From Dictyostelium discoideum (lineage: Eukaryota), in the NCBI GenBank assembly GCA_000004695.1, contig CM000150.2, positions 1,696,001 through 1,760,000 of the forward strand: a stretch of 64,000 nt of DNA, given 5' to 3'. Of the stretch, positions 15,435 through 63,870 are shown one piece after another. The notes under the pieces are model-generated. The model did no database searches. It had not been told where the DNA came from and worked only from the letters and a program-made list of their open reading frames with translations. The translations under genes and the position numbers were made by a program. Numbering within the stretch: the stretch's first letter is position 1; every line of letters begins with the position of its first letter.

Positions 15435-15741
15435 ATTATAATTTTTTATTTAATTATTTATTTATTTTTATTTTTTATTTTTTTTTTTTTAAAGGAAAAA
15501 TAAAAGAAAAAAAAGAAAAAAAAAAATATTTTGATTTAGTTTTAGAAAAAAAAAAAAAAAAAAAATTCAAAAATGGAAAACTTTGGAACAAAAAAATTTT
15601 TCCATATAGATTTGTTTTGATTTGTTTTTTTGAATGATTTTTTTTTTTTATTTTTTTTTTATTTTTTTTTTTTATTTTATTTTTTTTTTTTTTTTTTTTT
15701 TTTTTTGGCTTGTAAAACGAAAAAAATAAAATTTATTTTTT

Positions 15742-21865: not shown

Positions 21866-22455
21866 GTGTGGACAATTTTGACTTAATTATCATTTTTAAA
21901 ATAAATAAATAAAATAAAATAAAATAAATAAATAAATAAATAAATAAAATTTAAAAACATACTATTTATCCCCAAAAAAAATATATTTATTGGTATTGGA
22001 TAATTATAATAAATAAATATGTTTTTTTTTTTTTGTTTATAGATTGCTGAAAAAAATGAAATTAACAGTAAAAAACTTTAAGACTTTCATTAATAAATTA
22101 TAACAATAAAAAAATGAATAATTTAAGTTTTTGATTTATTAATTTAATAAAAATAGGTTTTTAATTTTTATTTATAAAAAAATGAAAATAAAAATAATAA
22201 AATAAAAAAAAAGTCTCCAAGAATCATAGATAATTGGTTATTTGAGAATCATTGATAAAAAATAAAAATTCTATGTGCAATGTTAAATATTAAAACGTTT
22301 TTTATTTTTTTATTTTTTTTTTTTTTTTCAGACCCACAAAAATATAATAATAAAAGTAAAAACATCACATCGGTGATTTGTAGGTAGAGAGGGAAAAAAA
22401 AATAAAAAAAATAAAAAAATGAAAAAAAAATGGGTCTTTAAATATATTATATCTG

Positions 22456-25882: not shown

Positions 25883-26152
25883 TTATGGTAATTGAGAAAG
25901 AGATTTTTTTGGTGGTGGACCTCCTTGAACACCTGAAAATTTAACAGCTGTTTGTTTATTATAAGAACTATCAGAGTGAGGAGTCCAGACCTTTTCCTTT
26001 TTACCTTTTCCTTCTTTTTGTTGTCTAATTTCCTAAATTTTTTTTTTTTTTTTTTTTTTTATTTTAGTAATTTATATTTTAAATTTTTTTAATATATTTA
26101 ATTTTATATTTACCTCTTCAAATTTATCTTTAAGGTTTTGAGTTGAGGTCAT
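25883..26152 (-). CDS. Small hypothetical protein, 62 aa, 2 exons (26152..26114, 26032..25883)
   Basis: ATG…GAAGAG|gtaaatat, acceptor tttag|GAAATTAGA. Product: MTSTQNLKDKFEEEIRQQKEGKGKKEKVWTPHSDSSYNKQTAVKFSGVQGGPPPKKSLSQLP. It has a basic, charged composition and no family I can recognise. Confidence 0.45.
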
Positions 26153-26230
26153 TTTTAAAATTTATTTGTTTGAATAAAAAGAAAAATAAATAAATAAATA
26201 AATGATTTTATGTGGTTTTGTTTTAAATGA

Positions 26231-26263
<33 letters not shown>

Positions 26264-26621
26264 ATAATTTTAAAAAAAAAAAAAAAAAAAAATTGTTTTT
26301 GTTGGGTGGATAGTACTTTTTTTGGGTTAAAATATTTTATAATAAAAAAAAAAAAAAAAAAAAAAAAAATATCTTGAAATTTTTTTTTTTTTTTTACAAT
26401 AAGTGAAGTAGTTTTTATGAAAATATGTGTCTTTTTTTTTTTTTTCCAAAAAATTTTGTAATGTTTTCTAATTACTCGATAATAGTTGATTTCATTTATT
26501 TATTTATTTTTTTTTTAATAATTTTTTTTTTTTTTTAATTACTTCACCCATCAAAAAAAAAAAAAAATATTTAGTCTCTCATTTGTATCCACCAATTTGT
26601 GATTGTTAACATTTGTTGTTT

Positions 26622-26670
<49 letters not shown>

Positions 26671-26982
26671 AAACACTTTCATCATATTACTTTTAAATTA
26701 CATAATTATTTCCAAAAATAAAGGTATTATTCAAATAAAAAACATAAAAAACAAAAAAAAAAAAAGAAAATACCTTATAAATATTTATAATCCACATATA
26801 TATCGTGTGGTATAAAATTGGAAAATATTAAAATTCATTAATTTTTAATTTCTCAAAAAAAAAAAAAAAAAAAAAAATTAAAATTTATTTTTATTTTTAA
26901 TTTATTTTTAATTTATATTAAATAATTTCAATTTAGATAATAACAAGTAATGGCAGAAAATTCATTAAATTTACCTCAATTG

Positions 26983-27137
26983 ACGGAGAAAATTGTGGAC
27001 ATATCGGTGAACTATCCAAATTATCTTGACATGTACACAAAAAGATTTTTTAAAAGGTGCTTGTGTTAAAGTGTCTTTTTGTGACATGTCCAAAGAGTTT
27101 GGATAGTTAAATGGCGATATCCACAATTTTCTCCATA
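26983..27137. repeat. Imperfect inverted repeat with arms of about 60 nt and a 30-nt loop, forming a long hairpin of roughly 155 nt
   Basis: The left arm cggagaaaattgtggacatatcggtgaactatccaaattatcttgacatgtacacaaaaag and the right arm ctttttgtgacatgtccaaagagtttggatagttaaatggcgatatccacaattttctccat are about 85% reverse-complementary over about 60 nt. The arms are not AT-only. Confidence 0.7.
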
Positions 27138-27391
27138 ATTTTTATTTATATTTTTTTTTTTTATTTTTTTTATCTAGTTTAATCAATAAAATTTAATTAA
27201 TTTCTAAAATCTGATGTTTGTTTTTTTTTTTAATTAAATTCTGCATCTAAAATTCTTATTTCAATATGTAATGGGATCACTTGAAAATCATTTAAAAATT
27301 ACTGATCAAATTATAATTAATCATATTAATATTAATTTAATTTTAAATATTATTTTATTTTATTTTATTTTTTATTTTATTTTTTATTATT

Positions 27392-29879
27392 TTATTTATT
27401 AAATATAACTACATAAATATCATATAATACTGCAAATGTAAAATAAAAAAAGACAGGATAACGTAACATATAAACTTTTTGAGGTAATTCAGCAGGAATT
27501 GGATAATGACCATAATTATTTCTTGAATTTGTAATCATTACATACATTGCCCAACCAGCTATCATATTTAAACCAAAACTTGTGCCAGTTTCCATAATGA
27601 ATAAGAAACCTCTTGGGTTTAAAAGTGCAACCAATAGAATGAAACCAAAGAATAATGTATAGAATAAATATTCTCTAATGGGTATACGAACAATTGCTGA
27701 AGAAGTTTCCCAAGTTGATTGACCTTCTTTTGAATCAATAAAAGAATTTATTAATCTTAGTTTATCATTAAACCAAAATTTAACTTTTCTAGATTGATTA
27801 ATCGATGATTTTAGTATATTTTGTTTAGCAACTTTAAATTTTGTTGAAATTTTTGATCTATAATTTATATTACTACCACCACCACTTGTAATATGTGGAG
27901 AAGAAGGTGAAGATGTTGGATTTGAAGTTGAATGATAAAATTCATTTGTAAAATCTTCCAATTCCTCTTGATCATTTATATCATTATGAATTTGATGATG
28001 GTGGTGGTGGTGGTGGTGATGGTGTTGTTGATTATCGTCATCATCACCATCATAATCGATATCATCATTTTCATCATGATGAGAATTTGATAAACTTTTT
28101 GTTCTCCAAGTATTTGAGAAACCATCTAAAGTATGTTTAAAACCACAACCAACTGAAATGAAACTAATGGTGATTGAAAGGGAGCAGAATAAGTTTACAA
28201 CATTTGCAATCCAAAGGAATTGTGGATAATATAAACTAATGACCTTCATTAAAGGTACTGTCGCAATTTCGCCATTCTTTGCTGCATTTGCAAGTGATGG
28301 CATATTTGGATTGGCTGGGTCTGGTAATTGTGGTATGATATTCAATAAAAAATAACACCAAATAATATTCAATACATAAACTGTAAATAAGGCAGCACCC
28401 GAAACATAATAACATTTAATAATTTCTTTACGAGTGAATACAATCTTTGGAAATACAACTGGCAATGTACTACTCGCCCCGCCCAATGCAATCGTCGAAA
28501 TTAGTAATGATTTTCCAATATAAGAGAAATCATTACTAATATCATTATGAACATGATTCGATACAATACCAGTTATAAATACAATTACAACTAATAATGT
28601 ACCCTTACCAAATGTACAAAATGTAATTACATGTTGTAATGTTTTTGATCCAAAAATAATTATACCTGTTAATATAACAATAACTGGTAAAATTAAATAA
28701 TGTTGCATTGATTCATCAATTTTAAATAATAATGAATATGATTCTGTTCCTGCTAAACCATATCCAATTAAAACTGAACAACTTTAAAAAATTATAAAAA
28801 TAATAAATAATAATATTAATATAAAATTTTAAAAATACTTTGTAATTATAATTTTTTTTTTTGTAAGTTGTATACGATTATAATTACTTACAAATGTAAA
28901 AGTCCAGAAAACATAAAAATAAAATAAGAAAATCTACCCATAAATTTTGTACCAATATTATGAAGATTTGGAGTTTGGTCATGTTGAGTTGGTGGTGGTT
29001 GTTGTTGTTGTTGTAGTTGTTGTTGTTGCTGTTGTTTCTTTGTTGAAGATAACATTGGACTATCTTCAAAACTAACATTACTCTTTTGATCATTATTATT
29101 ATTTATTAATGTTGGTGGAGAAGATCTAATTGATGAATTATTAGATGATTTATTTTTATTATTATTATTATTACTATTACTATTATGATTATTTAAAGAA
29201 TCAGTTGATTCTGATAAATCATTAATTTCATAATTATTATTTGTATTATTATCATTATTATTGTTAATTATATCTGGTGATAATATACTACTTTGAGTTG
29301 GTTCAATTTTTTGTAAATCTAATGATATTGAACCATCAATATCATTATTACTACTACTATTAGAGATTGTTGGTATGGTGGTTGAAAAGTTTGATTTAAT
29401 AATTGCATAAGCTCTTTGTAAAATTTCAATCAAGAAAAACATTGATATTAGTTGCATGAAAAAACATAAAGTATATGAGGACACAAATGGTGTAAAACCA
29501 CTTTGACTTAATTTCACTGGCAATCCAAGAATACCTGTACCCAATACCGATGCTATCACTATAAAATATAAATATGCCATTACTAAAAATGGGGTTTTTT
29601 TATTTTCTTCATTCATATTTTTATCATTATCACTATCATTATTATTATTATCATTATTAATATTGGTTATTTCATTATTATTTCTATTATTTAAAATATC
29701 ACTAAAATCAATTTTATCACTGCTACCACCACCATTAATATTAATTCCACTATTATTCCTTTTTAATGTAGTTTTATTATCTTGACTTTGTAATAATTTT
29801 TTATAGCTATCTTCACCACTATTTGTTAAATTATTTTCTCCAGTAATTATTGAATTACTACCACTTATCTCTTCATTGT

Positions 29880-62095: not shown

Positions 62096-62384
62096 GTTGA
62101 TTTTTGTATTGTATTAGAGGTGATAGTTGTTGATTGTGCTTGCTAAAAACTTGCTGGAAACTGTGATTGATTATCTTCTAATTTTACTGTTGGAATTGTT
62201 GTGTTCGTTTGGTGGTGATTCATCATTTAAATTTAAAAATGGGAAGGGGATTTTGCCTCTTTCAAAGAATGAACCTAAATATTCAACAAGTAAACTTTAA
62301 ATGATATCAAATATTTACTTTTTTACATAATATTTAAAAAATAGCAAAAGGTTTGTCTGAGTTTACATTGTTATTTCCTTTGGA

Positions 62385-62640
62385 CAACTTTAAGTCGACT
62401 TTCCTCGCTTCCCATCGATGTGCCTCGCTCTGTCTGCTCTGTTGCCAGCCTGGACCTTGACTCGGTCATTATCAACTTACTTTCAATCCTTATGGACTCA
62501 AGGTATGTCGACACCAACGTAAGTGTGGATCAACTCTATGCGTCGTTTTCCCCAATGGTCTTAACAATGCTCTCATCCTCTCCTCTAACGCACCTCAGCA
62601 AGAGGTTATAGATAATCGCAACTAAATCCTGCATACCAGA
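62385..62640. other. GC-rich island of about 250 bp, with local GC above 50% against a genome background of about 22%, carrying an intron-like GTAAGT…polypyrimidine…CAG signature
   Basis: Sequence: ctttcctcgcttcccatcgatgtgcctcgctctgtctgctctgttgccagcctggaccttgactcggtc…caaggtatgtcgacaccaacGTAAGTgtggatcaactctatgcgtcgttttccccaatggtcttaacaatgctctcatcctctcctctaacgcacctCAGcaagagg. The composition and the pyrimidine-tract style are unlike Dictyostelium introns or genes. It matches no snRNA, 5S or tRNA consensus I can recall. Confidence 0.6.
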
Positions 62641-63730: not shown

Positions 63731-63766
63731 CCTGATGGAGTAAATAAATTTTGATTTCATATCAAT

Positions 63767-63839
63767 GCCCGGCTAGCTCAGTCGGTAGAGCGCCAGACTC
63801 TTAATCTGGTGGTCGGGGGTTCGAGCCCCCCGTTGGGCG
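63767..63839 (+). tRNA. tRNA-Lys (anticodon CUU), 73 nt, no intron
   Basis: gcccggctagctcagtcggtagagcgccagactCTTaatctggtggtcgggggttcgagccccccgttgggcg. The cloverleaf has a 7-bp acceptor stem (gcccggc/gttgggc), A-box tagctcagtcgg and B-box ggttcgagccc. It is near-identical to eukaryotic tRNA-Lys-CTT. Confidence 0.93.
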
Positions 63840-63870
63840 AAATTTTATTTGTAAGGATATTAAAGTCGAG

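Follow-up and report, generated by a model that had tools for sequence, protein, structure and literature searches.

We identified a hairpin of 150 nt (26985-27134, + strand) in an intergenic spacer of Dictyostelium discoideum, within the 64,000-nt stretch of contig CM000150.2 analysed here (the window), which is clearly an inverted duplication and folds far beyond chance on either strand. It comprises 64 bp with 85% of its bases paired and is the best complex hairpin of the window. Tentatively we regard it as a young proto-miRNA or hairpin-siRNA locus having a low or conditional output, the reading as a neutral relic being nearly as likely. The duplication, the fold and its statistics, the single copy in the window, the contrast in composition, the gain deduced from synteny and the lack of identity with the published miRNAs compared are shown here, whereas transcription of the hairpin, its strand, processing by Dicer and any target are inferred.

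An inverted duplication forming a stable hairpin

RNAfold and the alignment of the two arms confirm the hairpin that the preliminary description had placed at 26983-27137, the stem extending from 26985 to 27134. Its dimensions differ from those described: the arms are ~72 nt instead of ~60 nt in length, the left (5') arm spanning 26985-27056 (+) and the right (3') arm, a diverged reverse-complement copy of the left arm, spanning 27063-27134 (+). The arms are 84% identical, their alignment showing 58 matches, 4 transitions, 7 transversions and 6 gap columns, and the right arm differing from the left arm by indels of 2 nt, 3 nt and 1 nt. The first 15 nt of the left arm, GGAGAAAATTGTGGA, are found as a perfect inverse repeat at the opposite end. 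A loop of 30 nt had been proposed between the arms; at the apex (27057-27062, +) the dot-bracket structure of minimum free energy (MFE) instead closes with the tetraloop UGCU at 27058-27061, which is embedded in a weakly pairing, A/U-rich apical section of ~25 nt containing A/U and G-U pairs. The ATG formerly assigned to the left arm is located at 26950. It precedes the first paired base by 35 nt and falls beyond the coordinates that the preliminary description itself had given, the arm beginning at '...GGAG'.

For the hairpin in a context of 171 nt (26975-27145, +) RNAfold yields -69.5 kcal/mol, compared to -31.0 +/- 3.7 kcal/mol for dinucleotide shuffles of the same region, none of the 200 shuffled sequences folding as well (z = -10.45). 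The comparison with shuffled controls, which had been named as a possible refutation, comes out far in favour of the hairpin. The minus strand folds with -64.5 kcal/mol (z = -11.2), the hairpin folded as DNA with -45.1 kcal/mol (z = -10.8), and the stem persists upon folding in a context of 406 nt. The stem region alone (26985-27134, +) reaches -68.0 kcal/mol at 37 C (-0.45 kcal/mol per nt) and -87.9 kcal/mol at 22 C (-0.59 kcal/mol per nt), the pairs on the + strand being 18 G-C, 40 A-U and 6 G-U. At 37 C the + strand folds better than the minus strand by 7.3 kcal/mol, having 6 instead of 1 G-U pairs and 85% instead of 75% of the bases paired, and three of the four transitions in the arm alignment favour the + strand. 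As this G-U asymmetry is based on few sites, it is a hint and not a proof of the strand.

We scanned the window by folding segments of 160 nt in 40-nt steps on both strands (3,194 segments; mean -17.6, sd 8.1). The hairpin ranks second despite lying off-centre on the grid, the sole stronger segment being a triplet-repeat artefact within the coding region of a permease-like gene. The GC content is 34% in the hairpin compared to 12.3% in the remaining spacer and 22% in the whole window, showing that the stem does not arise from the trivial A:T pairing of the background. Together with the z-score of -10.45 this bears out the preliminary description of the arms as being compositionally complex and unlike their AT-only surroundings.

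The hairpin is situated, as had been described, between genes. Gene and orthologue mapping place it in an expanded spacer of 1,239 nt (26153-27391) separating two minus-strand genes, 257 nt past the stop codon of one and 833 nt before the ATG of the other. The former is a permease-like gene of two exons (29922 to 27392, -; intron 28782-28891) matching Trp_Tyr_perm, for which the best protein match is from D. purpureum at 57%. Its exact ORF is on record in a Logan assembly, the contig carrying this neighbouring ORF being genomic, 99.88% identical and ending 33 nt beyond the stop codon, short of the hairpin. The latter gene (25883-26152, -) has two exons and encodes a lysine-rich protein of 62 aa (MTSTQNLKDKFEE / EIRQQKEGKGKKEKVWTPH...PPPKKSLSQLP), of which the D. 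purpureum orthologue has 65 aa (62% identity, E = 2e-18). This orthologue, located at the same position beside the permease, has four exons, two introns apparently having been lost or gained between the two species.

The orthologues of both genes are adjacent in D. purpureum with order and orientation kept, and the spacer between them is 269 nt long and shows pairings of A/T-runs only, no complex hairpin being found in it. Hence the DNA of the hairpin was either gained in the D. discoideum lineage or lost in that of D. purpureum. The difference in spacer size is reminiscent of the 'miRNA modules' that were gained and lost along with changes in spacer size between D. discoideum and D. firmibasis, as reported in a survey from 2024 (Edelbroek 2024). 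In P. violaceum a gene-free stretch of 2.5 kb is present downstream of the permease, and the 62-aa gene was not seen among the listed ORFs of this locus.

Comparison with Dictyostelium pre-miRNAs and published small RNAs

As standard for comparison we used the high-confidence criteria of Kozomara and Griffiths-Jones as applied by Liao et al. 2018, including a folding energy below -0.2 kcal/mol/nt and at least 60% of the bases of the miRNA duplex being paired. These criteria further ask for 10 or more reads per arm, a 3' overhang of 0-4 nt (strictly 2 nt) in the most abundant pair, a common 5' end in at least 50% of the reads, and small RNAs that depend on DrnB (and RbdB). For 26985-27134 the energies of -0.45 (37 C) and -0.59 (22 C) kcal/mol/nt are well below this threshold, and hypothetical 21-nt registers placed along the lower and middle stem, which stand in for a defined duplex, each have 16-20 of 21 bases paired. 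The D. discoideum pre-miRNAs range from about -0.49 to -0.85 kcal/mol/nt as worked out from Table S4 of the 2024 survey, and the named ones from -0.43 to -0.70 kcal/mol/nt in its Table S3; the value of -0.59 for the hairpin falls within the range of -0.43 to -0.85 kcal/mol/nt at 22 C. The hairpin also resembles these precursors, which are imperfect single hairpins of ~100-180 nt, in its length of 150 nt, published D. discoideum miRNA loci measuring 101-179 nt (Liao 2018; 2024 survey). It is intergenic, as are, among others, the DrnB/RbdB-dependent pre-miRNAs ddi-mir-1176, 1177, 1183, 1185 and 7097, it is species-specific and tied to an expansion of the spacer, and it is GC-enriched relative to the AT-rich spacer, Amoebozoan miRNAs reportedly being considerably less AT-rich than their intergenic surroundings. 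Dictyostelium has active Dicers processing hairpins of this kind, and some long Dictyostelium hairpins yield two adjacent duplexes. The likeness to Dictyostelium miRNA precursors suggested by the preliminary description thus holds for size, stability and GC enrichment, whereas among the published miRNAs compared the hairpin has no match. In contrast to the miRNAs listed in the 2024 survey, in which 'loops' of 41-102 nt lie between the miRNA strands, the hairpin is paired nearly to its tip and closed by a loop of 4 nt.

None of the 28 mature sequences taken from Table S1 of Liao 2018 and Table S4 of Edelbroek 2024 is present in the window, the 5p/3p set covering mir-1176, 1177, 1178-1185, 1186/can_D1, 7096, 7097, 7102-2 and can_D2. 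Likewise, with up to 3 mismatches allowed the window contains neither 5p nor 3p of the thug-S-derived can_D3, and it contains none of the 12 upstream motifs of the pri-miRNAs 1178, 1181, 1183, 1185, 1176, 7095, 7097, 7098, 7103, 7104, D1 and D2. Six 13-15-mers from the arms were not found in a Dictyostelium context in the literature texts, and none of six 11-14-mers from the arms occurs in the 2018 and 2024 supplements. A search of the hairpin against Rfam gave no match at gathering level; the matches to plant and animal miRNA hairpins were generic and sub-threshold, the best being MIR1888 with 30.6 bits compared to a gathering score of 72.

The 2024 survey further contains three D. discoideum clusters without a name that satisfied one or more sets of criteria, having 144 nt and -0.575, 139 nt and -0.591, and 162 nt and -1.055 kcal/mol/nt. 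We rejected all three as counterparts, no sub-window of the hairpin fitting by length and MFE per nt: the closest sub-windows differ by ~4 kcal/mol from cluster 1065 and by ~9 kcal/mol from cluster 1680, and for cluster 1861 an energy of about -171 kcal/mol would be required, which the hairpin is far from reaching.

Four small-RNA-seq studies apparently do not report this locus, which argues against a strong and precise processing, and the absence from the published miRNAs compared lowers the chance of an abundant canonical miRNA. According to the authors of such work, the sensitivity is limited by siRNAs from DIRS-1 obscuring less abundant small RNAs. For D. discoideum, 27 miRNA loci are reported.

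The start sites of D. discoideum pri-miRNAs are marked, as a tendency and not absolutely, by a stretch rich in T, at most 26 nt long and terminated by a G, the motif of mir-7105 consisting simply of a T-run plus G and the T25G type being used by mir-7105 and mir-1177. Unlike these pre-miRNAs the hairpin lacks such a stretch upstream: 25-mers that contain 17 or more T and end in G are absent from 26400-26990 (+) and from 27130-27800 (-), and no run of at least 18 T followed by G is found upstream near the hairpin on the + strand, the nearest one lying at 15707, ~11 kb off. T-run-plus-G motifs occur 16 times in the window and have a low specificity. One of this form, T23G at 26854-26877 (-), points away from the hairpin towards 26500-26850, in which no notable hairpin was found. 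About 44 uninterrupted T are located at 26622-26664 (+), ~320 nt upstream of the hairpin, being followed by AAATAAC and not by G. A motif scan yielded a possible TATA box, TATAAATA, at 26776-26783 (+), which has a low specificity in AT-rich DNA, and a possible poly(A) signal AATAAA, equally of low specificity, at 27185-27190 (+), 51 nt downstream of the stem. Together TATAAATA and AATAAA would frame a + strand unit of ~400 nt. AATAAA is also present on the minus strand at 26906, 26895 and 26889, and since TATA-like and AATAAA motifs are found on both strands they do not discriminate between them.

Possible origin and function of the hairpin

We suggest that, specifically in this lineage, a unique and relatively GC-rich segment of ~72 nt was duplicated locally and in inverted orientation within the enlarged spacer between the two minus-strand genes, and that a transcript crossing the duplication would fold into an imperfect hairpin of ~64 bp. 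This transcript might originate from an independent small unit on the + strand or from minus-strand read-through from the permease-like gene 257 nt away. The hairpin has the size of substrates that the nuclear Dicer DrnB and its partner RbdB cut into 21-nt duplexes, and its stem could accommodate about three consecutive duplexes of 21 nt; on account of these dimensions we take it for a young locus of the proto-miRNA or hairpin-siRNA type. It would represent raw material of the kind Dictyostelia quickly gain and lose, its output of small RNAs probably being low, imprecise or condition-specific, unlike that of an established abundant miRNA. A more specific proposal, namely an unannotated, D. discoideum-lineage-specific miRNA or hairpin-siRNA gene soon after its birth, from which DrnB cuts one to three phased 21-nt duplexes, we consider unlikely.

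In plants, young MIRNA genes are reportedly explained by a model of Allen et al. from 2004, in which they arise by inverted duplication. With such genes and with the hpRNA loci of animals and plants the hairpin shares the long, nearly fully paired foldback of an inverted duplication and the restriction to one lineage, and it could likewise yield several phased duplexes. It differs from them in that the window and protein searches identified no parent or target, and in that its arms do not resemble native coding sequence and are already 16% diverged, suggesting that the duplication is not very recent. Matches to 21-mers of the hairpin as target sites in the window are AT-rich or loop-derived only and have 3-4 mismatches.

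The preliminary description had considered the arms exon-like and, as an alternative, the hairpin an inverted duplication of a gene 5' fragment. Codon usage does not support this, and neither a parent in the window nor a protein homologue was found. An ORF of 39 codons (MAENSLNLPQLTEKIVDISVNYPNYLDMYTKRFFKRCLC*; 26950-27069, +; tblastn coordinates) begins upstream of the stem, runs across the left arm and terminates shortly beyond the apex. Judging from codon usage it is probably not a gene, the log-odds being -0.22 per codon compared to 0.61 +/- 0.39 (5th percentile 0.05) for 39-codon chunks of the long ORFs of the window, and G3+C3 amounting to 38% compared to 13.5% for the coding sequence of the window. 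Among the reading frames of the arms the best log-odds are 0.16 (one frame, reverse complement of the right arm), none being convincingly coding, and the GC content of the arms exceeds that of native exons (27.6%) in a non-coding manner. By tblastn no parent gene for the arms was found elsewhere in the 64-kb window. A word-indexed protein search returned no homologue of the ORF, and searching 1.84 billion representatives exhaustively with HMMER returned no credible one, D. discoideum proteins apparently being missing from the databases, so that these negative searches are weak on paralogues from the same genome. One candidate, P0009 (phmmer, E = 2.8e-5), was rejected as spurious, being a metagenomic tandem-repeat protein for which a single similarity of ~20 residues was summed over four repeats. 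Gene records contain no product of the 39-codon ORF, and ORFs inside or beside the hairpin are unrecorded as well.

It is quite possible that the hairpin is instead an inert relic, either a neutral by-product of template switching during replication or repair or a decayed foldback or MITE-like insertion, which is hardly transcribed, yields no small RNAs and has no function. The arm identity of 84% and the pairing of 85% are also expected from the neutral decay of a duplication, as judged for this single sequence, the pairing level being what arm identity alone predicts; moreover, the hairpin is absent from the published lists of miRNAs and candidates compared and has no specific promoter motif, and its 34% GC could be explained without selection by a duplication too young to have decayed to the background of 12%. 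Against inertness stand the two expressed-looking neighbours, the end of the permease-like gene 257 nt away making some read-through plausible, and the activity of Dictyostelium Dicers on such hairpins. The transposon version of the relic, proposed as a MITE in the preliminary description, is unsupported within the 64-kb window and the collections scanned: allowing for up to 3 mismatches the window has a single copy of the left arm, direct reading of the flanks ...CAATTGAC|GGAG...CTCC|ATAATTTT shows no direct repeat and hence no target-site duplication, patterns of the two termini or of one arm gave no match in metagenome, bacterial/archaeal or viral contigs, and plasmids and phages contain nothing similar to the hairpin. 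Multicopy D. discoideum miRNAs reportedly derive from hairpins of the repetitive element thug-S (Avesson 2012, as cited in later work). With thug-S the hairpin has in common that it is hairpin-forming, repeat-like DNA with inverted termini that could feed the miRNA pathway, whereas it differs in being single-copy in the window and in lacking both can_D3 5p/3p (up to 3 mismatches) and a target-site duplication.

Other explanations appear considerably less probable. That the hairpin is a miRNA gene already described, i.e. ddi-mir-7099, 7100 or 7101 (Avesson et al. 2012), or belongs to the thug-S family as a variant, is improbable: every structural feature fits the class and these three miRNAs lie outside the comparison set, yet few of the 27 reported loci remain outside it, the short arm sequences are found neither in the Dictyostelium literature (13-15-mers) nor in the 2018 and 2024 supplements (11-14-mers), Rfam has no match above threshold and can_D3 of thug-S is absent. 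We regard it as very improbable that the hairpin is a cis element, acting on the minus strand as a 3'-end or termination structure of the permease-like gene or as a distal promoter or cruciform of the 62-aa gene. It follows the permease stop codon at a distance of 257 nt and precedes the ATG of the small gene by 833 nt, which would allow for this, and the minus strand folds well too, but runs of TTTATT, which read AATAAA on the minus strand, start on the + strand at the permease stop codon, suggesting that the permease mRNA probably ends well before the hairpin, and the D. purpureum orthologues have their spacer of 269 nt and no such element. We know of no requirement for hairpins in 3'-end formation in D. 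discoideum. Least probable of all is a tiny protein-coding gene starting from the ATG at 26950, to which the hairpin would be incidental or would serve as a translational regulator; the ORF is ATG-initiated, its first ~10 codons look typical of Dictyostelium and an AATAAA follows downstream, but its log-odds of -0.22 are below the 5th percentile of 0.05, its G3+C3 is 38% instead of 13.5%, it stops just beyond the apex of the hairpin, its product is unrecorded and has no credible homologue among the 1.84 billion representatives, and nothing is present at the corresponding position in D. purpureum.

Dictyostelid miRNAs have a very fast turnover, for which the 2024 survey infers gain and loss of modules, the mechanism not being shown there. 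If small RNAs map to the hairpin, the proto-miRNA or hairpin-siRNA reading would provide a clean case for the birth of a miRNA, the spacer of the sister species being hairpin-free; it would be an amoebozoan example of the route from inverted duplication to proto-miRNA known from plants, with the hairpin-free ancestral state preserved in D. purpureum. If no small RNAs map, the locus would be an ordinary decaying palindrome and a caution that structure and GC contrast cannot alone identify miRNA genes in AT-rich genomes.

DUSE-type elements and other features of the window

The lowest energy in the 160-nt scan was obtained for 27961-28120 (+ fold, -56.7 kcal/mol) inside the coding region of the permease-like gene. 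In this segment runs of His-codon and Asp-codon triplets pair with each other, resulting in a low-complexity hairpin in a coding exon which is reminiscent of the published ATC/GAT-rich mir-1184.

Genes for Dictyostelium non-coding RNAs, i.e. Class I RNAs, snRNAs and the SRP RNA, have an upstream element (DUSE) of the sequence [A/T]CCCA[C/T]AA ~60 nt upstream of the 5' end, and Class I RNA genes contain the motif CCTTACAGCAA. Exact DUSE motifs are present in the window only at 22332, 28936, 36239, 60869 and 62698, none of them near the hairpin, and the Class I motif occurs nowhere in the window. The octamers at 22332 (+), 36239 (-) and 60869 (+) have no downstream Rfam match at E <= 0.1; they could have arisen by chance or could mark unannotated small non-coding RNA genes. 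A full-length SRP RNA gene of the Dictyostelium type is located at 62352-62634 (-; Rfam RF01570, 308.5 bits), and the DUSE-type element TCCCATAA at 62698-62691 starts 64 nt before its 5' end. A gene for tRNA-Lys(CTT) is found at 63766-63840 (+), ~1.1 kb from the SRP RNA gene.
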